Of a stretch of 64,000 nt of DNA, positions 13,321 to 64,000 are shown piece by piece. The translations under genes were made by a program, and so were the position numbers. The stretch covers positions 10,644 to 74,643 of the forward strand of contig QHNT01000055.1 of NCBI GenBank assembly GCA_003218515.1, in the 5' to 3' direction. A model generated the notes under the pieces. That model was not told the origin of the DNA, made no database searches, and worked only from the letters and a program-made list of their open reading frames with translations. The stretch comes from Verrucomicrobiota bacterium (lineage in GTDB: Bacteria; Verrucomicrobiota; Verrucomicrobiia; Limisphaerales; AV2). The first letter of the stretch is position 1. Each line of letters begins with the position of its first letter.

Positions 13321-16300
13321 GTGAAGCGACCATCGCTTCGAGCAGCGAGCGCCAATTCGTCGCCATGCGCGCGATAGTCTGCTCCTCGAACAGATCGGTG
13401 GCGTACTCGAAGAGTGCGCTGAGTCCCTCGGCCGTCTCCTGCACGTGCAGCGTGAGGTCAACCATTGCCACTCCGGGGTCCACCTCGAGCGGGCTGAGCG
13501 TAAGGCCCGGCAGGTCCAGCGGCCGCAGCGGCGCGTTCTGCAGCGCGAACATCACCTGGATCACGGGGTTGCGGCTGAGGTCGCGCGCGGGTCGCAACTC
13601 CTCCACCAGCCGCTCGAAGGGCAGGTCCTGGTGCGCAAAAGCGTCCAGGCACACTTCGCGCATGCGGCCGAGGAACTCCTTGGCCGACGGATCGCCCGAT
13701 AGATCGGTGCGCAGCACCAGGGTGTTGACGAAAAAGCCCACCACATCCTCGATCTCGGCGCGGTTGCGGTTGGCAACTGGCGTGCCGACAAGAAGGTCTT
13801 GCTGACCGCTGTAGCGCGAAAGCAGCGCCGTGAAACCGGCCAGCAAAGTCATGTAAAGCGTCGCGCCCTCGCGCCGCGCAAACCCGCGCAGCGCCGCAGT
13901 CAGCTCAAGGGGCAAGCTGAACGAATAAAGCGCCCCGCGGTTGCTCTCCACGGCCGGCCGCGGCCGATCGGCGGGCAACTCAAGCACTTGAGGAGACTCA
14001 GCAAGACGCGACCGCCAGTGCACGAGCAGTCCCTCCAGCGCTTCGCCCTGCAGCCAGTTGCGCTGCCAACGCGCAAAGTCACGATACTGAAAACGAAGCG
14101 CCGGCATCGTTGCCCCCTCTCCCCGGCAGAAGCGGCCATACAACTCGCCCAGCTCCCGGAACAAAATGCCCAGCGACCAGCCGTCGGAAATGGCGCTCAA
14201 GTCCACCACCGGCAGCAGCGTCCACTCGCCCGGCTCCGACACAACCTGCAGCGGCCGTCCCTCGACGTTCACGAAGCTCGTGCGCAGCGACTCATGGCGG
14301 CGGACGAGCTCCCCGAGCGCGCGCTCAAGCATCGGCGCATCGAGCGCCCCGCGCATCTCGAGGGCTCCCGCGATCACATAAGTCGCCTTTCCGGGCTCCA
14401 TCTGGTCCAGGAACCAGAGCCGCTGCTGCGAGAAAGAAAGTTCCGCCGGTCCGGGTTCCGCGGCCGCCTCCAATGGCCGAGCCGTTAGACCAGGCGCGGA
14501 GCCCGCCTGCAACACCCCGATGCGCGCCGCCAGGCGCGCAACCGTCGGGGCGGCGAAGAGATCGCGCAACGGCAACTCGACGGCGAGCGCCTGGCGCACG
14601 CGGGAAACGACCCGCATGGCCAGCAGCGAATTGCCGCCCAACTCGAAGAAGTCTTTGTCGATCCCCACACGCTCGAGGCCGAGAACCTCCGCCCAAGTGC
14701 CGGCCAGAATCTCCTCGGTGGGAGTTCGCGGTGCCAAGCAGGCAATCTGCTCCGAGTCAGGGTGCCTGGGGACCGGCAGTCGCTTGCGGTCGATCTTGCC
14801 GTTAGGGGTAAGCGCAAAAGAATCCAGCAGGACAAAGGCTGCCGGAACCATGTACTCCGGCAGACTTGCGCGAAGCAGCGCGCGCAACTCGCACACCAGA
14901 TCGGCAGACGGCTTCTCGGCCACGACGTAGCCCACCAGGCGCTTGTCGCCCGGGACGTCCTCGCGCGCAAGCACCACCACCTCCCGTACGGCAGGGTGTC
15001 GGCTGAGGGTCGATTCGATCTCCCCCAGCTCGACGCGAAAGCCGCGGATTTTGACCTGGTGATCAATGCGCCCGAGAAACTCGATACACCCGTCTGCGCG
15101 GAATCGCACCAGATCACCCGTCTTGTAGAGCCGCGCCCCGGCCTCACCGCTGAACGGATCGGGGACAAACTTCTGCGCGGTCAGCTCCGGCTGGAGCAGA
15201 TACTCGCGTGCCAGTCCATCGCCCCCGATGCACAACTCCCCGTACACACCGATCGGCACCGGCTGCATGTGGTGGTCCAGAACGTACACCCTCGTGTTGC
15301 TGATCGGTCGGCCAATCGGAACCGTCTGATCGATGCGGCTCTGCGCCGTCATGACGTGACAGCAGGTAAAGGTGGTGTTCTCGGTCGGACCGTACCCGTT
15401 GATGAGCCGGTTCTTTCCGACCATTTCGAGCATCCGGCGCACATGGGAAACGGACAACGTCTCTCCCCCTGTCAGCAGTTGGCGCACGCCCTGCAGACAT
15501 CCGATCTGCTCGTCAACCATCTGGTGAAACAGCGCCGCCGTCAGCCAAAGCGTGGTCACGCCATGCTCTTGAATCACGCGACCCAGCTCTTGTAGCGACA
15601 GCGGCCCCGCAGGGCACACCACCAGCCGGGCACCGTTGAGCAGACTGCCCCAAAGCTCCAAGGTGGACGCATCGAACGAGATCGGCGCAAACTGCAGGAA
15701 CACCTCTGGCGGACCCAACTCCACATAATTCGTGGACTTCACCAGACGCACCACGCTGCGGTGCTCGATGCAGGTCCCCTTGGGCCGACCGCTGGAGCCC
15801 GAGGTGTAGATCACGTACGCGAGGTTGCGGGCGTTGAGCCCAACGTTCAGGTCGTTCTGGTCCTCGAGCGCGATCTGCGGCCAGTCCGCATCCAGAAATA
15901 CGGTTCGCCCGGCACACGCCGGCAATCTGTCGCGCAGTTTGGCCTGTGTCAGCAGCACTGGCGCGGCAGTGTCCTCGAGCATGAAGCTCAGGCGCGACGC
16001 CGGATAATCGGGATCCAATGGCACGTACACCCCTCCCGCCTTGAGAATGCCCAGGATCCCCACCACCGTCTCCAGGCTGCGCTCCACGCAGATGCCGACC
16101 ATGACTTCCGGCCCCACCCCATGACGCGCCAGGTAACGGGCGATTTGATTAGCCCGGTCATTGAGTTCTCGGTACGTGAGCCGCTGTCCCTCATACTCGA
16201 GCGCTACTGCGTCGGGCGTGCACCTCGTTTGCGCCTCAAAAATTTCGTGGATACACGAATTGCGCGGGTAATCCACGGCTGTTTGGTTCCAATCCACCAG

Positions 16301-24118: not shown

Positions 24119-25288
24119 TCACTTGCCGAACCTGCCAGCTTGATCGACAAATATCTTCCCCAGAATGTCCTCATGGATCTGGGTGGTGCCTTCAATGATC
24201 TCCATAATCTTGGCATCACGGTAATACCGGGAAACCGGTGATGATCCGTGGCAGCCCGAGGCCCCCTTGATCTGAACGGCGTCAGACGCGGCTCTCACGG
24301 CGGCTCTCGACGTAAAATATTTAGCCATCAAGGTCTTTTCAAAGGCTTCCGGAAGATGACTGTCTTCCGCGCGGCAGGCGTTGTGGCATAAGAGACTCCC
24401 GGCCTCCAGATCGGTACCCATTCTGGCGATCAGTGATCGGACCATCCCCAGGTCTCCCACGGTTTTGTCACCAATCTTTCGTGTGCCCGCGTAGGCGATG
24501 CTTTCTTCAAAACATCCTCTCAGAAGCCCCAAGGCCGAGCAGGCCGTGCTGATTCTTCCATAGTGCAAACCCACCTGTGCGACGTGGGACAGGGCGAAAC
24601 CAGGTTTGCCAACGAGGTTGGCTGATGGCACTTCCACATCGTGAAAGTGAAGCTCGGCCAGACCGGCCGCACGGAACCCCATCAAATCGGAAATGGCTTC
24701 AATGTGAAGACCGGGAGTTTCTCTGGGCACCAAACACGCCGCCGAACGTTGGCCGAGTGTCCCAAACACCAGAAACACCGCGGCGAATTGGGCGCAGCTT
24801 ATCCATTTCTTGTGACCGTTCAGAAGAAGACAGTCACCTTTGGAATTCGGAGTGAATTCGGTGGTCAGGGATTGAAGGGCGCTACCAGCGCCCGGCTCCG
24901 TCAGCGCAAAGGCCCCGATCATCTCCCCCTTGGCCAGTGGAGGCAGCCATTTCCGCTTTTGCTCCGTCGTGCCCCATTTGAGCAGCGCCATGGAAACCAT
25001 GGCTTGGACCGTCACCACATCGGTCAAAGCGGACGATCCTCTCCCCAGGGCTTCATTGAGCAAATCAAACGTGACCGTGTCCCATCCTTGTCCAGCGTAC
25101 TCTCGTGGCAGGCTACAGCCCAGGTAACCGCGCTTTGCCAACTTGTCTATGACGGATTCAGGAAGTCTTTGCTCCCGATCCCACTGTTCGGCAAACGGTT
25201 CAACATCGAGCCTCACGAAGGACTTGAATTCTTCGTGCCGGCCCTTTTGCGCCCCAGTCAGCAGCTGTTGTCCCCCGCTCTTATCCAT
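24119..25288 (-). CDS. Acyl-CoA dehydrogenase-family enzyme (FkbI/ZmaI-like candidate acting on acyl-ACP)
   Basis: ATG at 25288 overlaps the ACP stop by 8 nt. ACAD fold sequence throughout (...GAFALTEPGAGS..., C-terminal ...YRDAKIMEIIEGTTQIHEDILGK). Confidence 0.8.
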   Translation of the reverse strand: MDKSGGQQLLTGAQKGRHEEFKSFVRLDVEPFAEQWDREQRLPESVIDKLAKRGYLGCSLPREYAGQGWDTVTFDLLNEALGRGSSALTDVVTVQAMVSMALLKWGTTEQKRKWLPPLAKGEMIGAFALTEPGAGSALQSLTTEFTPNSKGDCLLLNGHKKWISCAQFAAVFLVFGTLGQRSAACLVPRETPGLHIEAISDLMGFRAAGLAELHFHDVEVPSANLVGKPGFALSHVAQVGLHYGRISTACSALGLLRGCFEESIAYAGTRKIGDKTVGDLGMVRSLIARMGTDLEAGSLLCHNACRAEDSHLPEAFEKTLMAKYFTSRAAVRAASDAVQIKGASGCHGSSPVSRYYRDAKIMEIIEGTTQIHEDILGKIFVDQAGRFGK

Positions 25289-25544
25289 TCGGGTGCCCGT
25301 TCTTTTGCAGGACAAAAGCCGTCATCGCGTTCAGCGACTTGAAATTCTCGATGTCCAAATCGTCCGTTCCCACCTCGATGGCAAAGGTCTTTTCGATGAA
25401 CGTCATCAGTTGAACGGCAAACAGGGAATTGACGATTCCCGATTCAAACAGGTTGTCGTCGTCATCCAATTTCGCGATACTGATCGAGCTCGATATGAAA
25501 CGCTTGACGGTTTCTTTGATTCCTTTTTCGTCTGTAGTAGTCAT
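25281..25544 (-). CDS. Stand-alone acyl carrier protein
   Basis: 87 aa. ...DDDNLFESGIVNSLFAVQLMTFIE... has a phosphopantetheine Ser context (xNSL). Confidence 0.75.
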   Translation of the reverse strand: MTTTDEKGIKETVKRFISSSISIAKLDDDDNLFESGIVNSLFAVQLMTFIEKTFAIEVGTDDLDIENFKSLNAMTAFVLQKNGHPNG

Positions 25545-25783
25545 AGACTTTTCTGAATGATACCAACACCTTCGATTAGATGGTATGATCTACTTGGTTG
25601 GCGCTACTTTGATCAGTGCGAAATCCGCGTGAATCTTTGAGTCTCTTTGGAAAACCACCCTCGCAGGTCTCACGATCAGATGGCTTGTTGAGTGTTGAAA
25701 GGCAACCGCACATCGTTGCAAGCGCGGCTGCTGCCACGAACCTTGTGATGAACCTGGCGCCAATGATCCAGCGGAATCGGTAT

Positions 25784-26554
25784 CTAATGCGCGGAGCGCG
25801 CGGAGGATGAGGTTCGCGCATTTCGCGGCTTGCGCGTCACGCCGAGGTGGCCGACACGAGTGGGCCGAAGGTCGTGCTTCACGCAGAAGTCGTCCCAGGC
25901 GCCGTGGAGGTGCGTATCGTCGCTCATGAGCAGGCCCCCATGCTTAAGCCTGGGAAAGGCCTGCTCGAACTCGAACGACATATTTTCATAGGAATGATCG
26001 CTGTCGTGTAAAAAGATGTCCACGTGACCGAGGGTCCGCAGGAGGTCGGGCAAGAGCTTCCGCGAATCGCCAATCTGCAACTTCCAACGGAACCGCAGGG
26101 AATCAGGCACAATCCAACCGGACGCGCGCCCGTCCGGGAGCACTGAGCCCTGTTGGACGTTGGGCAGGTCAATCGAGTGCAGCGTGCCCGTGCCGTTCGC
26201 GGCAAGCGCCCGCAAAATGTGGGCCGACGAGAGGCCACTGGCAACCCCCGTTTCGACGATCACACCGGGTTTAATCGCGCGCACGACGGCATAGACCTCG
26301 GCCGTCTCGGGAAAGATGTAGGGGACATCGACAAGGCAGCGCTTGAGGTGCCCTTGAAACTCAGCGTCGTCGCGGAGCTCACGTCGGTAACGCATGACTT
26401 CGGCGTAGGGCAGACCCGCATGGTGTGCCAGGAGCACCCAACGGCGCAGGAGGTTCCACGCACCGCGCGGGTTAACGAAGGCGCGCCCAAAGTCATGAGC
26501 GAGCGACCACGCCGGGAACGATTGCTTCATTTGCTGAACATTGCTTAGTCTCAT
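25784..26554 (-). CDS. Class I SAM-dependent methyltransferase (O-methyltransferase-like)
   Basis: 256 aa. ...VIVETGVASGLSSAHILRAL... is a SAM-binding glycine-rich loop. ...DIFLHDSDHSYENM...HGGLLMSDD is typical of Methyltransf_24-like enzymes. Confidence 0.65.
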   Translation of the reverse strand: MRLSNVQQMKQSFPAWSLAHDFGRAFVNPRGAWNLLRRWVLLAHHAGLPYAEVMRYRRELRDDAEFQGHLKRCLVDVPYIFPETAEVYAVVRAIKPGVIVETGVASGLSSAHILRALAANGTGTLHSIDLPNVQQGSVLPDGRASGWIVPDSLRFRWKLQIGDSRKLLPDLLRTLGHVDIFLHDSDHSYENMSFEFEQAFPRLKHGGLLMSDDTHLHGAWDDFCVKHDLRPTRVGHLGVTRKPRNARTSSSARSAH

Positions 26555-26643: not shown

Positions 26644-29600
26644 CTACGAAGCTTGTCGCCTCATTGTCTTATATCGCCTTTGCTGACCCCGCTGGGCGGC
26701 CCCCGCAGTTGTGGTCCCGACGCGGGCAACTCCAGACGTCGAATTCAATTTGGCGGCGAGAAGTGCCACCGTCGGGCACTCGAACAGACTGACAATTGAC
26801 AGATTCTGTTTCAGCTCCTTTTTGATCATGGCAATCACCTGGACGGCTCTGAGCGACGTTCCGCCCGCCTCAAAAAAGTTATCATTCATCCCGATTCGCG
26901 GCCTGCCCAAAACCTTTCTCCATATGTTAATGAGCGCGGCTTGCAGCGTGTTGCCCGGTGCGACGTCCGTCCGGGCATGGAGAGGTTGCTTCCCGAGCCG
27001 GTATTCCTCAATGGCCGTTGCAATCCGGTCGATATCGTACAGGTCCTCCCCAATCCGCTGCAGGCGCTCGGATCGGTCAGCGACGCCGAATCCCCATGCC
27101 GGGCGTGGCGCGAGTTTTTCCGGGTTGACGGTTGCCTGCATCTCGTGCCCGACCGGCGCCGTCGCGTCCGGATTGTATTCCACGCCTGCCAGGCATTCTG
27201 CTGGAAAGGTCCAGGACGTGCCGGCCTCGTTCCGATGCTGATCGCCGAGGTGGGTGAGGAACTCCAGTGCCGGCCGATTCTTTTCCGTCGGCAGATACCT
27301 GAGTTCTACAAATCTTTTTCCTTCCTTGACCGCCCGCCGGCCGAGTCGGGACACCACCGCGTGTTCCACTCCCCGGCCCAATACCCGGCAGCTCAGCAAC
27401 AAGGTGTCCACCTTGTAACGGTCAGCCTCCGTCCCATACATCACGACCCCGACGAGCCCATAATCCCCAAATCGATCCACCACGCGAACCACCAGACAAT
27501 GGGCGCCTTCACTCATCAGGAAGCGTTTGATGTCATTTTCCGAGCGCCGGATGGTGGTGAAGTTGAATTGATTTGTTCTGAACGTCAGTTGCGAGACACG
27601 GCCGAGTTGATTTTCAGTCGCTTCAGCAATCTCGACGCTGAGTTGCAGTCCTTTGACAAAATCCTTCAAGGAGAACGAACGCTCACGGAACTGCTGCCTT
27701 TCCGTGTTTTCCCGATACATCCTGGTGCGGTTTTGATCCTCCTGGGTCGCACCCGTGTGATCGAACGCCCAAATATGATTCAGGAACGCAGGGAACAATT
27801 CGGCGTTCCGCGGCAATTGCAGCGCCAAAACGCCGGGGCAGTTGATCCTGACATCCGCGCAATCAACCGGGTTGTCATCCATGAAAAAGAAACTGTCCAG
27901 CCCAAGATTGAGCTCGTTCGCGAGCGATTTGATGTTTCCCGACTTGCTGTTCCAATTGATGCGCCACGAAACCAGGTGCTCGCGTTTCAGGAGCATATCG
28001 GTTCGTTGATCAAAGACGTCCTGCGCATCCTTTTCATTGTTCTTGCTGCACAGACAGAGCAGCATACCGGCGTGCAATTGACCGATCATGAATTCCTGCA
28101 ACGCGCGGTAAGGCGCAGTCAGTTCAATTCCCCAGGGACCATCCTCACCGCAAACCCCTTTCCAAAGCGTGTTGTCGCAGTCCAACACGATCACTTTGAA
28201 TGGGCTCCCTTTCAGGTTGAAGAGGGTTCGGACGAGCGCGGTCCCGATCGCGGCGTAACACTCCGGTGTGTACGGGATATGACCCGCATGATGACTATGT
28301 GGATCGTAATAGTCGTTGACCGGATAGCGCTGCAACAGCGCCGCCGAACTGATGGTGTGAACATTCGCTATTCTGGCCGCTTCTGATAACAAGGACTCCT
28401 CGGCATCGCTCAATGCCGCCTTCAGTTCCGCATCGGCTTCCGCGGCCGGGGTGCTTGGACAGAAACACAGGACCAGAGGTACCGCAGCCTGATTCATGAG
28501 CGAGCGCAGCGCCGCGCAGAACTCCCCGACGGTTCGTTGCAAACTGGCAACGCTCTGGCCCGTTTGACGCGTTCCATTGAGGCAGTCCCCTCTCCCTTTC
28601 TCCCTGTCCCCATTAGATGGGGAGAGGGATGGGGTGAGGGGTTTGCTGCCGGCCTCGCCCCGGGTTGCGTAAAGATTAAACAATCCGGAATGCTCGAGCA
28701 GTTTTTCGTGTTCGACGGCGCAACGGTACCCCCGCTCGCTCAGCAACTTTTCAATCCGCTTGACCGCCTCGCCAGTGCGGTCGTGAATTTCGATCACGAT
28801 CTGATCGATTTTCGGCCAGTCGCGGTCGTCGATGCCCTGAATGATGTCCAGCTCGCTTTTCTCCGCATCAATCTTGAGGAGATCGATTTTGTCGATCTGA
28901 TTGTCCTGGATAATGTCCGACACCGAGGTCAAGCGGCACTCGTGGGTCCTGCGGCGGAGCCTGTCGGCGGTGAGTTCATTGACGTATTCCTCCACGGATT
29001 CTCCTGCGACCGATTCGTTGTTCAGCATGTTCCGCACGACCGTTTGAATGGCCTCGCGATCCTCGTTTTCATCCGAATGAAAACCGGAGAAGACCGAGGA
29101 TTTTTCATAAAAGGTAAACGTCGCGGTCCGGGGCTTGTCCGACACGCCGGCGTTCAAGGCCCGGACATTCGATCCGTAGGCATCGCAGTTTGCCTTCAAC
29201 AGGTCATACACAACCGGAGCCGGTTCGAAGGCGAAAATGTTTGGGTTGGCACAGCGGCTCATCACGAACAGCGAAAAGAGCCCGATGTTCGCCCCGATAT
29301 CCACCACGGTCGCCCCGTCCCGCAGGCGGATGCCATGCCTCAAATAGCATTCATCCTCAAAAACCTCCTTGTAAACATAGTCCGTCTCATACCGGTTCAA
29401 ATGAACAATTTCCAGGCCATTCGGCAGGACGTATCTCGGACGATCGCCGAAGCATGGCTTTAACCTTTCCTGGTTGAGCGTCAGGACGGCAGACCGATGC
29501 TCTCCGGCCCATTCCTCCAACCTCAAGAGGACAACGTTGACCCCGTCGCGGTTCTTGCGAAACGCACTGCCCGCGTCCAGCAACTGCTGAAAGATCTGGT

Positions 29601-30711
29601 TGTAGGGCGCAAATTCGAGATGGATTGGAACGCCGAAATGGTCGCCCCAGAATTTCAGCGAATCTTCCATTGGCTCGGCGGTGAAATTGGCAGCGATGAC
29701 GACGTGGGCTGCCTTCTTTTCGTCGGCAGCGTCAACGCGGTCCAGTAAGGTGAAGGCGACGCCCGAGAGTTCCACATACGGTTTGCCCCCCTGGTCGAAA
29801 ACGCGAACGTTGCCGACAAGACCCCTCTCCCTTTCTCCCTCTCCCCATCGGACGGGGAGAGGGACGGGGTGAGGGGCATCCTGCGCCTGCAGGGTTGCGT
29901 GACCCCACAGCGTATCGGGGAAATTGACGTCGGTTACTTCGATCTTCTCAATCGATCGCAAGACGAAGGTCTTCCCCTTCTCCATGATGAAGGGCGCCAG
30001 CAACTGAGTTATCGAATCCAGCAGACTTGGGTGCAAGTCATGTGCCTCGATTTCGCCAGCCTGGCGCGCCACGGAAAGTTTTCCCAGGGATTGATCGCCC
30101 GTGCGCCAAATCGCGGAGATGTTTTGAAAGCGGGACCCGTATTGGTTGCCATTGTCACGCAGCTTTTTGTAAAAATGTTCCGAGTCGATCACGGCATGAG
30201 ACTGCGCCTGGAATGCTTCGATGGAAAACGGTTCGGTGCCCGCTCCCGGAAACGTTGATGGATTCCGGTCAATTTCGAGCTTGGCGGCAAATTGGCGGAC
30301 GGGAGGCCGGGCGCTGCCATCCCCGACATCTGCTTCGTAGAACGTGTACTCAACCGGCCCGCCGCTGTTGTCCCTGACTTCGATCCTGATGACGGTATCC
30401 TCTGCCGAAAGAATGATGGGGGTTTGGAAGGTCACGTTTCGTACGAGGCCCGGAACGCGCTTAAAAAGTTCGCGATACCCAACCAGGGCCAGGTGAATAT
30501 AGAAGGACCCCGGCAGCACGATCATGTCCTGAAAACCGTGATCAGCCAAATACGGCACGGAACGAACACCGATCCTGAATTCCGCGGAGGCTGCCAGCGG
30601 CCGATCCGTGGGGAAACTGACACTGTGTATCGAGGCGGCTTCAGGAGCCCACTTGCGAGGAGAGGATGGATCGTGGCCCATCAAATCAGAAGAATTTGCG
30701 CATGCTTTCAC
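26644..30711 (-). CDS. Multidomain loading enzyme: PKS-type dehydratase - FkbH N-region interrupted by an FkbM-family methyltransferase - HAD-IIIC (FkbH) - GNAT-like - carrier protein
   Basis: DH has YLADHGFQDMIVLPGSFY and LHPSLLDSITQLL. FkbM has VVDIGANIGLFSLF...FAFEP...IDLLKIDAEKSELD. FkbH/HAD has KVIVLDCDNTLWKGVCGEDG...LCSKNNEKD. GNAT-like region has VVDRFGDYGLVGV...LLLSCRVLGRGVEH. C-terminal carrier is FFEAGGTSLRAVQVI. Confidence 0.85.
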   Translation of the reverse strand: MKACANSSDLMGHDPSSPRKWAPEAASIHSVSFPTDRPLAASAEFRIGVRSVPYLADHGFQDMIVLPGSFYIHLALVGYRELFKRVPGLVRNVTFQTPIILSAEDTVIRIEVRDNSGGPVEYTFYEADVGDGSARPPVRQFAAKLEIDRNPSTFPGAGTEPFSIEAFQAQSHAVIDSEHFYKKLRDNGNQYGSRFQNISAIWRTGDQSLGKLSVARQAGEIEAHDLHPSLLDSITQLLAPFIMEKGKTFVLRSIEKIEVTDVNFPDTLWGHATLQAQDAPHPVPLPVRWGEGERERGLVGNVRVFDQGGKPYVELSGVAFTLLDRVDAADEKKAAHVVIAANFTAEPMEDSLKFWGDHFGVPIHLEFAPYNQIFQQLLDAGSAFRKNRDGVNVVLLRLEEWAGEHRSAVLTLNQERLKPCFGDRPRYVLPNGLEIVHLNRYETDYVYKEVFEDECYLRHGIRLRDGATVVDIGANIGLFSLFVMSRCANPNIFAFEPAPVVYDLLKANCDAYGSNVRALNAGVSDKPRTATFTFYEKSSVFSGFHSDENEDREAIQTVVRNMLNNESVAGESVEEYVNELTADRLRRRTHECRLTSVSDIIQDNQIDKIDLLKIDAEKSELDIIQGIDDRDWPKIDQIVIEIHDRTGEAVKRIEKLLSERGYRCAVEHEKLLEHSGLFNLYATRGEAGSKPLTPSLSPSNGDREKGRGDCLNGTRQTGQSVASLQRTVGEFCAALRSLMNQAAVPLVLCFCPSTPAAEADAELKAALSDAEESLLSEAARIANVHTISSAALLQRYPVNDYYDPHSHHAGHIPYTPECYAAIGTALVRTLFNLKGSPFKVIVLDCDNTLWKGVCGEDGPWGIELTAPYRALQEFMIGQLHAGMLLCLCSKNNEKDAQDVFDQRTDMLLKREHLVSWRINWNSKSGNIKSLANELNLGLDSFFFMDDNPVDCADVRINCPGVLALQLPRNAELFPAFLNHIWAFDHTGATQEDQNRTRMYRENTERQQFRERSFSLKDFVKGLQLSVEIAEATENQLGRVSQLTFRTNQFNFTTIRRSENDIKRFLMSEGAHCLVVRVVDRFGDYGLVGVVMYGTEADRYKVDTLLLSCRVLGRGVEHAVVSRLGRRAVKEGKRFVELRYLPTEKNRPALEFLTHLGDQHRNEAGTSWTFPAECLAGVEYNPDATAPVGHEMQATVNPEKLAPRPAWGFGVADRSERLQRIGEDLYDIDRIATAIEEYRLGKQPLHARTDVAPGNTLQAALINIWRKVLGRPRIGMNDNFFEAGGTSLRAVQVIAMIKKELKQNLSIVSLFECPTVALLAAKLNSTSGVARVGTTTAGAAQRGQQRRYKTMRRQAS
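28587..28641. repeat. GC-rich palindromic repeat element (REP/MITE-like core), in frame inside the loading-enzyme gene
   Basis: cccctctccctttctccctgtcccc-attagat-ggggagagggatggggtgagggg. Translated on the minus strand as ...PLTPSLSPSNGDREKGRG... Confidence 0.8.
29822..29875. repeat. Second copy of the GC-rich palindromic element, same plus-strand orientation, different reading frame
   Basis: cccctctccctttctccctctcccc-atcggac-ggggagagggacggggtgagggg. Translated on the minus strand as ...PHPVPLPVRWGEGERERG... Confidence 0.8.
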
Positions 30712-31904: not shown

Positions 31905-33335
31905 TCACCTGGGCACGTCCATGCCCGCGACGGGGTGGAAGGGCTCCTCGAATCCGGGCTCTCGACCCGGACGCCGGCCATTCCTCTTGTCCTTGCCCTC
32001 ACTCCCTGCGCGTGCATCCTTAAGCGGGGGTACGCCGCCAGTAAACTGTCCCAGTTGTGGCTGGTATTCAGGGACAGCGCATTTCAAGAACCATTTGAAC
32101 TCGTCCGGCCGCAGCTGATCTATTTGCTCAACCAATTCGAGCACGAAGGCGCGGACCTGTTCGTAGGGCAGAGGTTCACAAAGCAATCGCATGATCTTGG
32201 GATGCCGAGTGCCGGTGATTCTCTCGCCTCGGTAGCTGAGCTCTTCGAACAGTTTTTCACCGGGACGAAGCCCGGTAAACTCAATCCGAATATCCTGATC
32301 GGGAGTGAAACCGGAAAGCTCGATCAACTGCCGTGCCAGGTCCAGAATCCTGACCGGCTTGCCCATATCCAGGGTGAAAATTTCCCCGCCAGATCCGAGC
32401 GCGGCGCTCTGCAAGACGAGGCCCACGGCCTCCGGGATGGTCATGAAATACCGCACCACATCCGGATGAGTGACGGTGACCGGTCCGCCGGTGGCAATTT
32501 GTTTGGTGAAAATCGGAACGACGCTGCCGGAGGATCCGAGCACGTTGCCGAACCGGACCGCCATAAAGCGGGTGGCTCCCGGCTGGTTGACGTGGAGCGA
32601 CTGCACACACATTTCCGCCAGTCTCTTGGTTGCCCCCATGACACTGGTCGGGTTAATGGCTTTATCGCTTGAAATCAGGACGAAACGGTCGGTCGGGTGT
32701 TTTGCGCATGTCTCGGCGAGCCGCAAAGTTCCCAGCGCGTTGTTTTTGACGGCCTCGCCGGGTTGCGTTTCCATCATGGGCACATGCTTGTGGGCGGCCG
32801 CATGAAAAATGACCTGGGGATGATAGTGCTGGAAAATATAGTCCACTCGCCGTTGATCCAGAATATTCGCCACCAGAGGCACGACCGCTTCGCCGCAGCT
32901 GCAATGCATCAAGTCCTGTTGGATTTGAAAAAGTTGAACTTCAGATTGCTCTACCAGCAGCAGACGACGCGGAGAATAACCGGCGATTTGCCGGCACAGT
33001 TCGCCGCCAATGCTTCCGCCGGCGCCCGTCACCATCACCACGCGATCCCGTAGAAGCTGTTCAATGTCGTCGGTGGCCAGCCGCACCTGCTCCCGGCCCA
33101 GCAGATCTTGAGCTTCCACGGACCGCAACTGGCTCACCTTGGCCTGGCCGGTAGTGAGTTCGTAGATGGAGGGGACGGTGCTGAATTTGATTTGGAGCCG
33201 CTGCTGAGTCTTGTTCCGCAGTGTAATGCTGGACGTAGAAGGGAACCTCGGGTCTCGGGCCGACCAGACCCGCGCCGATGATTCCCGCGCGTCGCGCGCG
33301 TTGGCGGGGCAGGCTTGGCGTGCGGGCGGTGGCAC
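31905..33335 (-). CDS. CapD/WbpM/PglF-type polysaccharide biosynthesis SDR (nucleotide-sugar 4,6-dehydratase) catalytic domain; N-terminal membrane part detached
   Basis: Homology begins near 33190 (...IKFSTVPSIYELTTGQAKVSQLRSVEAQDLLGREQV), then VMVTGAGGSIGGELCRQI...SSDKAINPTSVMGATKR. Codons upstream of ~33200 are an out-of-frame read of the 59-nt patch and the membrane module. Confidence 0.75.
   Translation of the reverse strand: MPPPARQACPANARDARESSARVWSARDPRFPSTSSITLRNKTQQRLQIKFSTVPSIYELTTGQAKVSQLRSVEAQDLLGREQVRLATDDIEQLLRDRVVMVTGAGGSIGGELCRQIAGYSPRRLLLVEQSEVQLFQIQQDLMHCSCGEAVVPLVANILDQRRVDYIFQHYHPQVIFHAAAHKHVPMMETQPGEAVKNNALGTLRLAETCAKHPTDRFVLISSDKAINPTSVMGATKRLAEMCVQSLHVNQPGATRFMAVRFGNVLGSSGSVVPIFTKQIATGGPVTVTHPDVVRYFMTIPEAVGLVLQSAALGSGGEIFTLDMGKPVRILDLARQLIELSGFTPDQDIRIEFTGLRPGEKLFEELSYRGERITGTRHPKIMRLLCEPLPYEQVRAFVLELVEQIDQLRPDEFKWFLKCAVPEYQPQLGQFTGGVPPLKDARAGSEGKDKRNGRRPGREPGFEEPFHPVAGMDVPR
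33211..33269. repeat. 59-nt copy of an internal sugar-transferase gene segment, embedded in the CapD gene
   Basis: 57/59 identical to 34727-34785 (only aa vs cg differs). Encodes LVGPRPEVPFYVQHYTAEQ on the minus strand. Confidence 0.95.
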
Positions 33336-33720
33336 GAGTGCGCGCCTGGCGAAACGCCAGGCGGATGGCGGTCAGCCCGAGGATGGAGAAACTGAAGTCG
33401 ACCAAAACCACGCTCCGTGGCGGCGCGTAATCCGAGCCCAGATTCGTGGAGATCCCGAACACGATGAAACTCGTGGCGAGCAGAACCCAGAACAGCCGCG
33501 AAAAATCCGGCAGGCTGAAATAACCCACGAGCACCTCGAACTGGCGCAATCGCCACAGACAAACCAGCTTGAAGCCGATGACCCAGGCGAACACGGGCAG
33601 AAACGTTCGCTCGGCTTCCGGCGGCACAGCAAAGTCGAATCGAAGTTGATACCCCAACCACAGACTGCCGACCAACCCGGCAGCGTAGGACAGGACAAGG
33701 CAGATGCGAGTAAAGCTCAT
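33270..33720 (-). pseudogene. CapD/WbpM-type N-terminal membrane module (4 TM + start of GxGxxG), separated from its catalytic domain by a patch and a frame change
   Basis: ORF 33061..33720. MSFTRICLVLSYAAGLVGSLWLGYQLRFDF...RRAGIIGAGLVG is paralogous to residues in the C-terminal half of the 33782..35434 product. It then runs into the 59-nt patch and nonsense. Confidence 0.6.
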
Positions 33721-33781: not shown

Positions 33782-35434
33782 TCACGAGGTCTGTTGCCGT
33801 CCCCAGAATTTGATCGGGCAACTGACCGTATAGAATCTCAAGCCGGTTTGGCGGAGCAGTTCATCCAGCTCACGGATTCGCTCCACAGGAGCGCTGGGCA
33901 TGGCGATGACCACTTCGTCGAGTTTTTCGCTCCAGCCGTCGAGCAGACATTCAGGCATGCCGACCACGGGCACTTCGTGGATGCGCTTCTGCCATTTCTG
34001 AGAGTCATCGTCGAAGAAAGCGACGATGACCCGGCCGAATTTCCTTTTGACGATCAGCTCCAACGCGAGTTTCGCGCCCGTGCTTCCGGCCCCGATGATG
34101 CCGACTCGCGCCGGCGGATCGACAGACGCGTCTTCCTCTCCCGCCGAGCGCTCGCGCCACAGCCGCAGCAAAACGCGGAAGCCACTGAGCAAAGAAAGCG
34201 ACAAGAGAAAATCGACGAGAATGAAGTTCCGCGGAGGGCTGCCCGCGCCGGCAGCCCACCAGGCGAGCAGACCGAGAGTAGCCAGGCCCAGCGCGGTGCC
34301 GACTTGCCGCAGTTCGGGAAAACTGAAGTAGCTGAGCAATCCCCGGCACTGATTACGCCACGTCAGGCACGCAAGCTGCAAGGCGAGCACCACGGAAATC
34401 TCACGCCAAAACTGAAGCGCGGACATTGCCGGTGGCACGAAATCGTAAACCAGTTGGCAGGAGAGCCAAAAGGATGCCGCCAGGATGATTCCATACGTTG
34501 CCAGCACGCCGATCCAATACGGACAGACGGTTCGCACAATGATCCAGGTATCGCTTAACAAGTTCGCGCGCAGGGCGTATTCCCGATTGAGCGCCAGCTT
34601 TCGCGGCATGCATTGCTGAATGTAAAACTCCTCCAGGTTGTCCGCGTTTCCCAGCAACACCTCCTCGTCGCGGAAACACAAAGATGCCAGATCGGTGATC
34701 CCGGGCTTGCACTGCAAAATGTCACGTTGTTCCGCAGTGTAATGCTGGACGTAGCGGGGAACCTCGGGTCTCGGGCCGACCAGACTCATTTCGCCCGTCA
34801 ATACATTCCAAAGCTGTGGCAATTCGTCCAACTTCGTCCGGCGCAGGATCCGTCCGATCCAGGTAATGCGAGCATCACCGTCCTTCGTGACGAACGGCCC
34901 GACCTGCTCCGCCGCGGGCACCATAGTGCGGAATTTGCAGATTCGGAATGGTCGTCCCTGAAGACCAATCCGTATTTGCCGGTAGAAAATGTCTCCCCCA
35001 TCGGCAATTTTTATGAGCGCGCCAATCAGCAGAAATGCCGGGCTGAGCGCCACCAGACCGGCCAGGGAAAAAACAATGTCGTAGAGACGCTTGGCCGCGG
35101 GGAAGGCCCGGACCGCAGCGGTCTCATGCGCCGGCCCGCTCGTTCCCGGAAAGACGGGCCTTTCCACCCAACGCACCGCCGTGCGGAGAAAACTTGTCGC
35201 CCTTCGGAGCGTCGCTTGGGCGGTCGAGAGGATGGCGGCGATCGGGCCAGGGACGGAGGCCGCACAAGGTTGCCCATTTCGCCTCGCCATCTGCCTGGAG
35301 GCGTCCCGGTTTACGAAGCCGGGTCGCCACCGATGTCTGCGCGGCCGGATTCGGAATGCGTTTGTCTGCGGCTGTAATTCGTTCATACGGTCGATTGAAG
35401 GTTGCAGGAGAATCCGCCAGCGGCGGACTTTCAC
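33782..35434 (-). CDS. Bacterial sugar(-phosphate) transferase domain fused to a CapD/WbpM-type membrane + Rossmann-like N-module
   Basis: Bac_transf motifs: KRLYDIVFSLAGLVALSPAFLLIGALIKIADGGDIFYRQIRIG..., KFRTM, DELPQLWNVLTGEMSLVGPRPE. Next come 4 TM segments, then VGIIGAGSTGAKLALEL...VAFFDDDSQKWQKRIHEVPVVG...DEVVIAMPSA. The true start is uncertain. Confidence 0.75.
   Translation of the reverse strand: MKVRRWRILLQPSIDRMNELQPQTNAFRIRPRRHRWRPGFVNRDASRQMARRNGQPCAASVPGPIAAILSTAQATLRRATSFLRTAVRWVERPVFPGTSGPAHETAAVRAFPAAKRLYDIVFSLAGLVALSPAFLLIGALIKIADGGDIFYRQIRIGLQGRPFRICKFRTMVPAAEQVGPFVTKDGDARITWIGRILRRTKLDELPQLWNVLTGEMSLVGPRPEVPRYVQHYTAEQRDILQCKPGITDLASLCFRDEEVLLGNADNLEEFYIQQCMPRKLALNREYALRANLLSDTWIIVRTVCPYWIGVLATYGIILAASFWLSCQLVYDFVPPAMSALQFWREISVVLALQLACLTWRNQCRGLLSYFSFPELRQVGTALGLATLGLLAWWAAGAGSPPRNFILVDFLLSLSLLSGFRVLLRLWRERSAGEEDASVDPPARVGIIGAGSTGAKLALELIVKRKFGRVIVAFFDDDSQKWQKRIHEVPVVGMPECLLDGWSEKLDEVVIAMPSAPVERIRELDELLRQTGLRFYTVSCPIKFWGRQQTS
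34727..34785. repeat. Source copy of the 59-nt segment, inside the sugar-transferase domain
   Basis: Encodes SLVGPRPEVPRYVQHYTAEQ, part of the conserved transferase core. 57/59 identical to 33211-33269. Confidence 0.95.
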
Positions 35435-62006: not shown

Positions 62007-64000
62007 TTATCCTGTGACCTTGACCTCTCTCGCGTGTTCCCGCGATCGCCGGGGTTTGCCGGCTCGCAACACGCGCAGCGTGAACCCGCGACCATTGTCG
62101 AAATGCTCAACCCGAGCCTCGATTTCCAACACGGGATAGCGCACGGTTGCCAGGCCGTAACTCTTGTAAGTCTGCGCGAATAGTTCGGTTTCGACGATGC
62201 CCGTCCAGTCGGCCAGTGACAGAAACTTCATTGGCTCGCCGGTTATCTGGTGGTGAGCGCGTTGCTCGACGACGAGTCCGCAGGTGGTGACGGTCTCACC
62301 GACGAATTCACCGAGCCGATTCACGGGACAGTACGTGTCCCAGGCAACGTCCGCGAATAATTCCAGCGGGTGTCCGCTGACGGCAAAACCGAACAGGTCG
62401 GTTTCCCATTCCAAGCATTCACGGCGGCTTGGCTCATGGAGAGCCTCCATTCGCTTTTGCGCACGCATTGGGACCATGAACCACCCCTCACCCGACCTTC
62501 GGCCACCCTCTCCCCATCGGATGGGGAGAGGGGGCGGTTCATGGAAAGCCCCCTTTCGTTTTTCGCATGCATTGGGACCATGAACCACCCCCTCACCCGA
62601 CCTCCGGGCACCCTCTCCCCCTCCGAGGGGGAGAGGGATGGGGTGAGGGGGTGGTTCATGGAGAGGGATGCCGGGCAAGTGTTGCCAGCCGGGCGGTGGA
62701 ATGAGCCAGCCCTGGTTCGGCTCTACGCCCGCGCCGTAGGTCTTGAGCAGATGCTGGGCTTGCCAAAACTGGCGCGTCCGAGTCTCGCCAAATTCGTCGA
62801 ACGCTCCCACGCGGATCATCGCTTCCAGTTCCTCTCCCGCAGGAGCGACTCGATGAAAGAAATCCGCCAATGACTCAAACGGCCCGCGCTCGCGAGCGTC
62901 GAGGATCGCGTCCTTCGTGCGCGTCGTGAGTCCTTTCACCCGCGTCAATGGCACGCGGATGGAGTTGCCCTGCGGCACGAAGGCCGGTCCGGGTTCGTTG
63001 GTCGATGGCGGCGACAACTTCAATCCGAGCCGATGACATTCGAGGACATAAACAATCGGGTGGTAAAAGCCCTTGCCGTTGGTTAGCACGGCGGCCATGA
63101 ACTCGGCGGGAAAGTAGCGTTTGAGCCACGCCGATTGATACGCTTCGACGCCGTAAGCGGTGCTGTGCGCTTTGCAGAAGGCGTATCCAGCGAAGCCGGT
63201 GACCAGTCCCCACACTTCGGCGGTCTTCTCGGGCGAATGGCCGCGCGCTTGGGCGGACTCGAAAAACTCGCCGCGAATTTCCTCAATGAGGGCGCGCTTT
63301 TGTTTATTGAGAGCGCGCCGGAGCACGTCCGCCCGCCCGGGCGGCAAGCCGGCGAACGCTTCGCAGAGTTGCAGGATATGTTCCTCATAAACCACCAGCC
63401 CATAGGTGCTCCGCAGGCACGCTTCCAGTGACGGATGCGGATAGGTGACCGGCTCAAGACCTTGGTAGCGCCGTGTGAAGGCCAGCTTCTTGCCTTCGTT
63501 GGCCGCGCCGGGCCGAATGACGCTGACGATGGCAATCAGTCCGTCAATTTCGCGCACGTTGCACATCCGGCAGAGGCTTGTCATCGCCGGGCTTTCGATG
63601 TGATGGACTGCCCGCGCACTGCCGCTGGCGATCATCTCCCACACATTCGGGCCGCGCCACGGTTCGGGCGCTTGCGGGTCGCCGAGCAGCAAGCGGCCAT
63701 CGGATTTGTCCCGCGCAATACACCGGTCCAGGTCCACTTCGATGCCGCGCTCGCCGAGCATGGTTTTCACGTCGCGCATGGCCGCAAGTCCGCCCTGCGC
63801 GAGAATGTCCATCTTAACGAGGCCGATGGCTTCCACCGCGTCCATGTCAAAGTGCGTCGTGGCGTAGCCCTTGTTGGCGATGAAGGTCGGCGTCAACTGG
63901 TGCAGCGGCTGGCGTGAGAGCACGAGCCCGCACGGATGCATCTTGGGGTAGCGCGGCACGCCGTCGAGGAACTCCGCCATTTGCAGGGCCGTCCGGTAAG
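62007..64000 (-). CDS. dnaE: DNA polymerase III alpha subunit family (DnaE or DnaE2), C-terminal ~660 codons; 5' end outside the window
   Basis: ...KMHPCGLVLSRQPL..., KMDILAQGGL, ...FCKAHSTAYGVEAYQSAWLKRYFPAEFMAAVL..., and an OB-fold tail. The frame is open to the window edge. Confidence 0.8.
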   Translation of the reverse strand, partial: YRTALQMAEFLDGVPRYPKMHPCGLVLSRQPLHQLTPTFIANKGYATTHFDMDAVEAIGLVKMDILAQGGLAAMRDVKTMLGERGIEVDLDRCIARDKSDGRLLLGDPQAPEPWRGPNVWEMIASGSARAVHHIESPAMTSLCRMCNVREIDGLIAIVSVIRPGAANEGKKLAFTRRYQGLEPVTYPHPSLEACLRSTYGLVVYEEHILQLCEAFAGLPPGRADVLRRALNKQKRALIEEIRGEFFESAQARGHSPEKTAEVWGLVTGFAGYAFCKAHSTAYGVEAYQSAWLKRYFPAEFMAAVLTNGKGFYHPIVYVLECHRLGLKLSPPSTNEPGPAFVPQGNSIRVPLTRVKGLTTRTKDAILDARERGPFESLADFFHRVAPAGEELEAMIRVGAFDEFGETRTRQFWQAQHLLKTYGAGVEPNQGWLIPPPGWQHLPGIPLHEPPPHPIPLPLGGGEGARRSGEGVVHGPNACEKRKGAFHEPPPLPIRWGEGGRRSGEGWFMVPMRAQKRMEALHEPSRRECLEWETDLFGFAVSGHPLELFADVAWDTYCPVNRLGEFVGETVTTCGLVVEQRAHHQITGEPMKFLSLADWTGIVETELFAQTYKSYGLATVRYPVLEIEARVEHFDNGRGFTLRVLRAGKPRRSREHAREVKVTG
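62434..62665. repeat. Two tandem composite repeat units (catgga-type module + GC-rich palindrome) inserted in frame in the dnaE-family gene
   Basis: Unit 1 is about 62434-62539 and unit 2 about 62540-62665. Unit 2 holds a long imperfect palindrome, tgaaccaccccctcaccc...ccctctcccc-ctccga-gggggagaggg...ggggtgagggggtggttca. The palindrome core is the same family as 28587-28641 and 29822-29875. Confidence 0.85.

Follow-up and report, generated by a model that had tools for sequence, protein, structure and literature searches.

The G/C-rich motif now called TMECO, and earlier BoxC or PIT, follows the pattern CCCTCNCCC-N3-6-GGGNGAGGG-N3-GGGNGAGGG (Holder et al. 2015, PMC4666352). It was counted 3610 times in 262 proteobacterial genomes, every one of the 23 copies of E. 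coli K-12 is intergenic, and other G/C-rich triplex motifs have been noted in cyanobacteria (PMC4666352). As single-stranded DNA, TMECO forms a purine-motif triplex in vitro, a structure not demonstrated in vivo; PIT elements have no promoter or terminator activity, and TMECO has been linked to small local rearrangements with no associated mobile element (PMC4666352). Other palindromic repeats are known from inside genes. Rickettsia palindromic elements (RPEs) of ~105-146 nt come from an obligate intracellular alphaproteobacterium, according to the accounts of two later papers (Ogata et al. 2000, as cited in PMC3733652 and PMC3184786). Intragenic repetitive extragenic palindromes (REPs) occur in several species, with the largest numbers in the verrucomicrobium Opitutus terrae (Di Nocera et al. 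2013, PMC3733652); uvrA/B, recBCD and dnaE2 are among the replication and repair genes that hold many of them, and such REPs encode 20-30 aa and are sometimes present twice per gene (PMC3733652). Fusions of MITEs (miniature transposable elements with inverted repeats) with open reading frames (ORFs) and internal insertions of such elements are documented as well (Delihas 2011, PMC3184786). Here, we analysed a 64-kb stretch of a Verrucomicrobiota genome (contig QHNT01000055.1; hereafter the window, to which our census of copies in the source organism refers) that carries a G/C-rich palindrome of the BoxC/PIT/TMECO type inside two genes, as two short copies (A and B) in a polyketide-type gene and two tandem long copies in a DnaE-family polymerase gene. 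We propose, with a probability of about 0.8, that a dispersed non-coding repeat was copied into coding DNA and was kept at tolerant positions as new peptide.

The gene that holds the short copies (26644..30711, minus strand) encodes a 1355-aa protein with a dehydratase (DH) domain, an FkbM-type methyltransferase, an FkbH domain and an acyl carrier protein (ACP). Copy A (28587..28641) and copy B (29822..29875) lie exactly where the initial annotation had put them, with the sequences it gave, and both are in plus orientation. Copy A is a ~55-nt palindrome composed of two C-blocks, a 7-nt loop and two G-blocks (CCCCTCTCCCTTTCTCCCTGTCCCC-ATTAGAT-GGGGAGAGGGATGGGGTGAGGGG), with a single mismatch in its stem (CCCTGTCCCC), and copy B belongs to the same subfamily. 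Each measures 54-55 nt, their cores are 91% identical, and the 19-nt 5' block is found exactly twice in the window versus 0.01 occurrences expected from shuffles. A 39-nt oligonucleotide of the motif reads CCCTCTCCCCATCGGACGGGGAGAGGGACGGGGTGAGGG. Since the starts of the copies are 1235 nt apart (2 mod 3), they are read in different frames: on the minus strand copy A yields PLTPSLSPSNGDREKGRG (aa 691-708), and copy B is read as (A)PHPVPLPVRWGEGERERG within the segment APHPVPLPVRWGEGERERG (aa 279-297). Peptides that would span the junctions of the decorated protein include ..AQDAPHPVPLPVR and WGEGER... The Pfam and NCBIfam domains of the ORF (PKS_DH_N 46-125, PS-DH 165-326, FkbM 471-664, FkbH 839-1158 and PP-binding, i.e. 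the ACP, 1259-1320) share one frame on both sides of each copy, and the ORF is therefore intact, a single reading through both elements as originally described.

The core of the element consists of CCCTCTCCCC, a loop, GGGGAGAGGG, N3 and GGGTGAGGGG, which is the BoxC/PIT/TMECO arrangement of CCCTC(N)CCC(C), loop, GGGGAGAGGG, 3-nt loop and GGGTGAGGGG in the same order. The published blocks CCCTCNCCC, GGGNGAGGG and GGGNGAGGG are matched in order by both strands of copy B and by the plus strand of the second DnaE copy; copy A deviates by one mismatch, which the published definition permits. Canonical purine-motif triads (G·G:C, A·A:T, T·A:T) are possible at 10/10 positions of A(+), B(+), B(-) and DnaE copy 2(+). 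Copy B has a perfect 10-bp inner stem, with 10/10 triads on both strands. Moreover, the purine and third-strand 10-mers are identical to those of E. coli TMECO no. 22, with 10/10 Watson-Crick pairs. The strict published regular expression (loop 1 of 3-6 nt, loop 2 of 3 nt) has no match in the window because loop 1 is too long, being 9 nt with 9-nt stems or 7 nt with 10-nt stems, and a relaxed pattern was used in its place. The 7-nt loop pairs internally, which leaves a 3-nt loop; loop 2 is 3 nt on the plus strand, within the pattern, and 5 nt on the minus strand. In copies A and B the outer block is not the generic CCCCTCACCC but an uncommon one, CCCCTCTCCCTTTCT, and due to the extra outer C-block the complementary strand also carries the motif. 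Folding of the hairpin, which had been suggested as a check, gave strong structures for both strands of each copy, at -44 to -51 kcal/mol with z between -4.2 and -6.0. The elements also account for 5/6 G-quadruplex (G4) motifs of the window.

Like BoxC/PIT/TMECO, some copies are palindromic with the motif on both strands, no transposon accompanies them, and their flanks show small deletions or changes. The differences lie in the longer loop 1, in the extra outer C-block or long inverted repeats, in the hosts (Verrucomicrobiota, Planctomycetota and Acidobacteriota, whereas TMECO was counted in proteobacteria) and in location, as all four window copies (4/4) are in frame within ORFs while those of E. 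coli K-12 are only intergenic. The resemblance to RPEs is one of behaviour: these too are small palindromes that insert in frame, leave genes open and add a peptide segment, as related in the papers that cite their description (PMC3733652, PMC3184786). In contrast to RPEs, the short form described here is ~55 nt, G/C-rich and, by sequence, capable of triplex and G4 formation. The two are probably unrelated in sequence. The initial annotation had proposed a REP/MITE-type element, and the part of this proposal that stands is the dispersed palindromic insert. The DnaE-family, UvrB and RecD hosts encountered in this study match host genes of intragenic REPs. However, REPs carry a terminal GTAG/CGTC tag and are linked to REP-associated tyrosine transposases (RAYTs), and the window copies have neither tag, ending in ..AGT/CCCCTC...GAGGGG/TTT and ..AGA/CCCCTC...GAGGGG/CAT (slashes mark the borders). 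No transposase or RAYT gene was seen by Pfam among 21 window ORFs scanned, which encode a glycan/exopolysaccharide cluster and a hybrid non-ribosomal peptide synthetase (NRPS)-polyketide synthase (PKS) cluster. As in MITEs, perfect terminal inverted repeats (21 nt) are present in the long form, which folds into a long stem-loop, and the short form is one palindrome throughout, but there is no genuine target-site duplication, and we know of no parent insertion sequence. By its sequence, the element is thus a BoxC/PIT/TMECO-type motif and not a REP or a classical MITE.

Both copies had been assigned to positions between domains, and this holds for copy A. It lies in a hypervariable linker behind the FkbM domain, between the conserved ...LFNLYATR at the end of the methyltransferase and the conserved ...FCAAL, in a segment whose length and sequence differ in every aligned orthologue. 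Copy B is not placed after the DH domain but within its fold, inside the Pfam PS-DH match and in a beta-hairpin loop of the second hotdog. AlphaFold, run on residues 1-345 together with 47 orthologues (pLDDT 79.8, pTM 0.81), predicts strands at 248-259, 267-274, 297-305 and 311-323, and copy B fills the loop 275-296, where pLDDT drops to ~66, lower than in the confident strands on either side. Two further strands of the hotdog sheet follow downstream of copy B, up to residue 323. The window gene keeps each of H58, P67 and D232, which are invariant in the DH, as well as the almost invariant Q236; together with the predicted fold this would speak indirectly for a functional protein.

To place the two copies in time, we searched for homologues, obtained 521 that have this architecture and aligned the best 120 of them. 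At site B nearly all of these 120 orthologues (~115) have a short conserved DGDEKG-type loop and no element. P0001, whose gene has 94% DNA identity, lacks the element here, as do P0003 and P0006, and the site is filled only in the window gene, in its 99%-identical relative P0002 and in P0049, with an eroded copy in P0043 (best 120 of 521). At the DNA level, 52-54 nt in the window gene correspond to 13-15 nt in P0001, P0003 and P0006, a net gain of 39 nt. At site A the element is common to the window gene, P0001 and P0002 and absent from P0003 and most others, eroded remnants being recognizable in P0006, P0039 and P0067; here the net gain is 27 nt, with ~45 nt replaced. The same filled sites are carried by P0002 and by the independent metagenome contigs L131 and L133, all from near-identical relatives, hence the inserts are not assembly artefacts. 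The element thus sits in frame inside an ORF whose orthologues lack it, as RPE-like inserts do, and the orthologue alignment, which had been advised for defining the boundaries, reveals empty sites in close relatives. Judging from these comparisons, copies A and B are recent additions and not native linker.

It had been argued beforehand that distant orthologues with the same peptide at low DNA similarity would speak for an ancient linker. P0049 (68% identity) superficially presents such a case; its element, however, is 84% identical in DNA, closer relatives are empty and the flanks of the window copy are 97% like the empty allele, which together argue against an ancient native linker. The view that the segments belong to an old linker or loop of the enzyme family and resemble the repeat by chance can draw on the related peptide exactly at site B in P0049 (68-70% identity) and P0043 and on the remnants at site A in P0006, P0039 and P0067. 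We nevertheless regard it as extremely improbable: the closest relatives are empty, the ~115 orthologues share a different conserved loop at site B, the copies remain 91% identical in DNA though their frames differ, copy B has a 96%-identical counterpart at an unrelated locus, and the same core is present in the unrelated DnaE-family gene of the window.

This second host gene (62007..64000, minus strand) encodes the C-terminal 663 aa of a DnaE-family DNA polymerase III alpha subunit and runs off the end of the window. It is possibly of the DnaE2 (error-prone) kind; JGI calls many of its homologues 'error-prone DNA polymerase', and one of them, P0215, is fused to ImuB-like domains. Two tandem long-form copies (~105 and ~117 nt) occupy 62434..62665 (the repeat search placed them at ~62455-62661). 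Each consists of a triplex-motif core inside CCATGAACC...GGTTCATGG inverted repeats plus a ~34-nt tail, and the 21-nt perfect arms of the terminal inverted repeats, at 62578-62598 and 62641-62661, resemble those of MITEs. The insert comprises 222 nt (74 aa), is in frame and is missing from 120/120 nearest homologues, including P0121 at 87% identity. It lies in a length-variable segment of the alignment, between the end of the fingers/helix-hairpin-helix region and the conserved LFGFAVSGHP. Its boundary is ambiguous within the 10-nt repeat TCATGGAGAG (62434-62443 and 62656-62665). We considered this direct repeat as a target-site duplication and rejected it on comparison with the empty-site DNA of P0121 and P0125, according to which 226 nt substitute for 4 nt; the phase of the two tandem units, together with a 4-nt CTCT microhomology, accounts for the repeat. 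In total, the window contains four copies at three sites in two genes, all of them intragenic. A 59-column profile built from 124 copies (nhmmer) recovered these four and a weak match at 14102-14131, which was considered as an eroded extra copy and taken as chance (E = 0.31).

Outside the window, a scan of GTDB species genomes for the exact core CCCTCTCCCC-N7-GGGGAGAGGG returned at least 119 loci. Among the matches listed, ~26 are from Verrucomicrobiota, 23 from Acidobacteriota, 31 from Alphaproteobacteria and 8 from Planctomycetota, plus others, and nearly all loci listed have CCCCTCACCC upstream and/or GGGTGAGGGG downstream of the core. Recurrence beyond the host gene, which the initial annotation had made a test of its proposal, is thus borne out by the DnaE-family gene and by these loci in other genomes, often of Verrucomicrobiota. 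ORFs spanning the element with at least 100 codons on each side were found for 24% of copies versus 48% of random positions in the same loci, a depletion from which it follows that most copies are probably intergenic. This threshold was passed by 31 spanning ORFs, of which 30 were run against Pfam; in 9/30, domains or parts of a split domain match flank the element on each side and share one frame. The core lies in the linker between the membrane and ATPase domains of an ABC transporter (L005) and in frame in a Ser/Thr kinase (L017), UvrB (L018), HrpB (L020), TsaD (L087), RecD (L115), GlyS (L116), CtaA (L025) and GCV_T (L058). All three reading frames are in use among spanning ORFs (PLP.., LSPS.., PSP..).

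A subfamily-specific scan of metagenomes produced one informative extra locus, L135, the remaining matches being the same gene in relatives, other repeat families and low-complexity sequence. At this unrelated locus, a copy 96% identical to copy B forms the C-terminal tail of a 498-aa ORF, which, judging by its sequence, may be an NADH-dehydrogenase-like flavoprotein. The peptide of the DnaE-family insert gave 45 matches among 87 candidates listed from a protein database, all of them domain-less ORFs of 98-136 aa without taxonomy. These short ORFs agree weakly with the statement of the initial annotation that such peptides are common in hypothetical proteins of Verrucomicrobiota-like genomes, and they do not amount to a census. 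A literature search on the peptide strings of the element found no papers. Two loci contain arrays: in a Thermoanaerobaculia metagenome-assembled genome (MAG; L062, 4378-4506) the core is repeated head to tail with a 48-nt period made of a 27-nt palindrome and an identical 21-nt spacer, and in an Omnitrophota MAG (L056, 6998-7134) blocks of the element occur in dense mixed arrays. Both are other organisational forms of the same building blocks. On contigs of MAGs labelled Bifidobacteriaceae or Bifidobacterium (L051, L059, L070, L094 and L119) the repeat has flanks typical of Verrucomicrobiota loci, and these bins may include mis-assigned contigs.

Site B is filled in more than one lineage. In a neighbour-joining tree of 121 proteins the window gene, P0002, P0001 and P0003 form one clade, and P0049 and P0043 fall into another together with P0006, P0039 and P0067, the latter three being empty at this site. 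The three filled lineages share identical junctions, orientation and frame. Such a recurrent junction hints at targeting or allele exchange: either the same subfamily struck repeatedly, which amounts to targeting, or a conversion tract ended exactly at the borders of the element. The P0049 gene (L003, 10001-14116) harbours three elements: one fills site B, and the linker behind FkbM has the other two, which differ in subtype and point in opposite directions, and so the same two permissive positions were filled repeatedly.

Copy B might also derive from copy A, which lies 1.2 kb away in the same gene, through an intragenic duplication or an ectopic gene conversion, and not from the dispersed family. 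Copy A is the older of the two, as it is common to the window gene and P0001, and the copies agree in orientation, in 91% of positions and in the outer block CCCCTCTCCCTTTCT, a subfamily mark that is rare in the metagenome collection. Against this, copy B is closer to L135 (96%) and to copy A of P0001 (93%) than to its own neighbour, and the same subfamily fills site B in P0049, whose site-A copies belong to other types. We hold a local origin to be unlikely, if plausible. Homologous recombination could instead have moved filled alleles between lineages without repeated insertion. The filled site-A alleles of the window gene, P0006 and P0049 share derived flanking codons (CLNG...SQ..) that P0003 lacks, which suggests a single origin with exchange in the host gene, and the identity of the site-B junctions fits as well. 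At site B, however, the 150-nt flanks of the window gene match the empty allele of P0001 at 97% and P0049 at only 79%, the element between them matches that of P0049 at 84% versus L135 at 96%, and a conversion tract would need to stop exactly at the borders of the element. Exchange of filled alleles is therefore rather unlikely in our view.

Returning to the copying of a dispersed repeat, the three junction events have several properties in common: none shows a target-site duplication, 4 to ~45 target bases were replaced, and microhomology of 1-4 nt is present. At site B, 13-15 nt of the ancestral DGDEKG-type loop were replaced. Filled and empty sites could thus be compared for boundaries as the initial annotation had recommended, and a target-site duplication, which it had also named, is seen at none of the three insertions. 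Absence of duplication, replaced bases and microhomology favour templated copying in replication or break repair, for instance by a template switch to another structure-forming copy, over insertion by a transposase; our preference for this route, the weakest step of the account, is tentative and falls short of even odds. It would agree with the instability reported around TMECO copies (PMC4666352).

What happens to the copies after their arrival can be followed in the predicted hairpins. At site B these are -48.1 kcal/mol in the window gene, -34.7 kcal/mol in P0049 and -18.8 kcal/mol (z -0.6) in P0043, which has a 12-nt central deletion; at site A they are -40.6 kcal/mol in the window gene, -42.6 kcal/mol in P0001 and -21.2 kcal/mol (z -1.0) in P0006. 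In view of this erosion in older copies, no local function is indicated. Rfam found no family at the gathering score in the whole window, and a known structured RNA was rejected, as permissive E-values returned generic hairpin noise (miRNA precursor models; Antizyme_FSE with 27.8 bits versus a threshold of 40). No intrinsic terminator or promoter was found at 28400-30000. A hairpin, triplex or G-quadruplex could still have been retained for a role in translational pausing at fold boundaries, in mRNA stability or as a recombination or mutation hot spot that reshuffles PKS domains and repair genes. The very stable mRNA hairpins (-44 to -49 kcal/mol), the share of the elements in the G4 motifs of the window (5/6) and the tie between the motif and local genome instability (Holder et al. 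2015, PMC4666352) would suit this idea. Most orthologues do without the element, however, and its structure erodes at orthologous sites with no compensation; recombination between the direct copies A and B would delete 1235 nt and shift the frame; and the same study reports that PIT has neither promoter nor terminator activity and that the triplex is unseen in vivo (PMC4666352). We consider a retained function very unlikely.

We also asked how often the element can be read through. In the element +/- 12 nt, 4.45/6 frames are open versus 4.32/6 in random windows of the same GC-rich loci, and stops occur in 2 frames of copy A, 1 of copy B and 3 of the DnaE-family insert. An intrinsically stop-free sequence in six frames was thus rejected as the reason for tolerance; that it can safely be translated is for the most part a feature of the genome and not one of the repeat, and tolerance would come mainly from position and from a loop composition of Pro/Ser/Leu followed by Gly/Glu/Arg.

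Overall, the empty sites of orthologues and the recurrence of the core support the view of a dispersed repeat that landed in tolerant positions and is now new peptide. In the mechanism we envisage, copies of a palindrome built from the 10-mers CCCTCTCCCC, GGGGAGAGGG and GGGTGAGGGG would be written into the coding DNA of a Verrucomicrobiota-like genome and would survive only where they change the net length by a multiple of three (+39, +27 and +222 nt), are read in a stop-free frame and sit in a linker or a surface loop. Whichever frame is used, the C-rich arm would encode Pro, Leu, Ser, Thr or His and the G-rich arm Gly, Glu, Arg, Asp or Trp, giving a flexible hydrophilic loop that is tolerated; the copies would have no detectable job at these sites and would decay over time. 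Several points weigh against this account. The peptides are presumed to be translated, from the open frame, and to be harmless, and the elements are no more stop-free than their surroundings (4.45/6 versus 4.32/6 open frames). The templated-repair mechanism is based on three junctions only. The filling of the same site-B junction in three lineages is not predicted by random copying plus selection, and the published TMECO pattern is not strictly satisfied, owing to the length of loop 1.

Several features near the two genes were recorded in passing. A 59-nt direct repeat (97% identical) is found at 33211-33269 and 34727-34785, in a region with minus-strand ORFs at 31905..33335, 33061..33720 and 33782..35434. 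Its first copy lies exactly where a CapD/Polysacc_synt_2-like gene splits into two frames, with ~73 aa missing versus the 699-aa orthologue of L003, and the second is inside a neighbouring Bac_transf gene. It looks like ectopic recombination between partly paralogous neighbours disrupted the CapD/Polysacc_synt_2-like gene. Behind the host gene (24119-26554) are a Methyltransf_24 methyltransferase and an acyl-CoA dehydrogenase, and orthologous loci (L003, 14118-17380) have, in addition, genes for a 3-hydroxyacyl-CoA dehydrogenase and for a free ACP. There is no room for this further dehydrogenase in the window, where 90 nt separate the host gene from the start of the Methyltransf_24 ORF, and L001 is without its gene too. 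Presumably, the neighbourhood resembles an extender-unit cassette of the methoxymalonyl-ACP type, as we take it from the fkbGHIJK genes of FK520. A 1022-aa beta-helix protein has an internal 300-nt repeat (59753-60052 and 60419-60718; 80% identity, 666-nt spacing), which corresponds to two Big_7 Ig-like domains and to an ordinary domain duplication.

In-frame palindromic inserts are already established by RPEs and intragenic REPs; what is new here is the involvement of the BoxC/TMECO triplex-motif type. Our analysis adds that this type reaches Verrucomicrobiota, Planctomycetota and Acidobacteriota, that it sits in a DH fold and in a DnaE-family polymerase, and that its junctions argue against classical transposition. 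It thereby joins two separate literatures, one on the BoxC/PIT/TMECO motif (intergenic and mainly proteobacterial) and one on in-frame palindromic inserts. Peptide strings such as PLTPSLSPSDGER.., PHPxPLPxRWGEG.. and ..GSWSQC.. in Verrucomicrobiota-type and 'hypothetical proteins' are repeat-derived, and they should be masked in homology searches, in domain-boundary calls and in analyses of PKS/NRPS linkers. The sites that tolerate inserts mark permissive loops, which might serve in engineering. To our knowledge, the route by which these repeats multiply has never been established, and the anatomy of the junctions together with the recurrent filling of sites offers a handle on it. A broader reading, which we regard as quite doubtful, is that the BoxC/TMECO-like repeat is a structure-forming element, pan-bacterial and constant in sequence, and that templated copying guided by homology or structure, and not transposition, carries it into the coding DNA of Verrucomicrobiota and Acidobacteriota. 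It would have a real preference for certain targets (the same subfamily having hit the identical DH-loop junction independently in up to three lineages) and would repeatedly decorate enzymes of replication and repair (DnaE-family, UvrB, RecD and HrpB). If true, this would represent a distinct way in which protein loops are innovated and repeats propagate.

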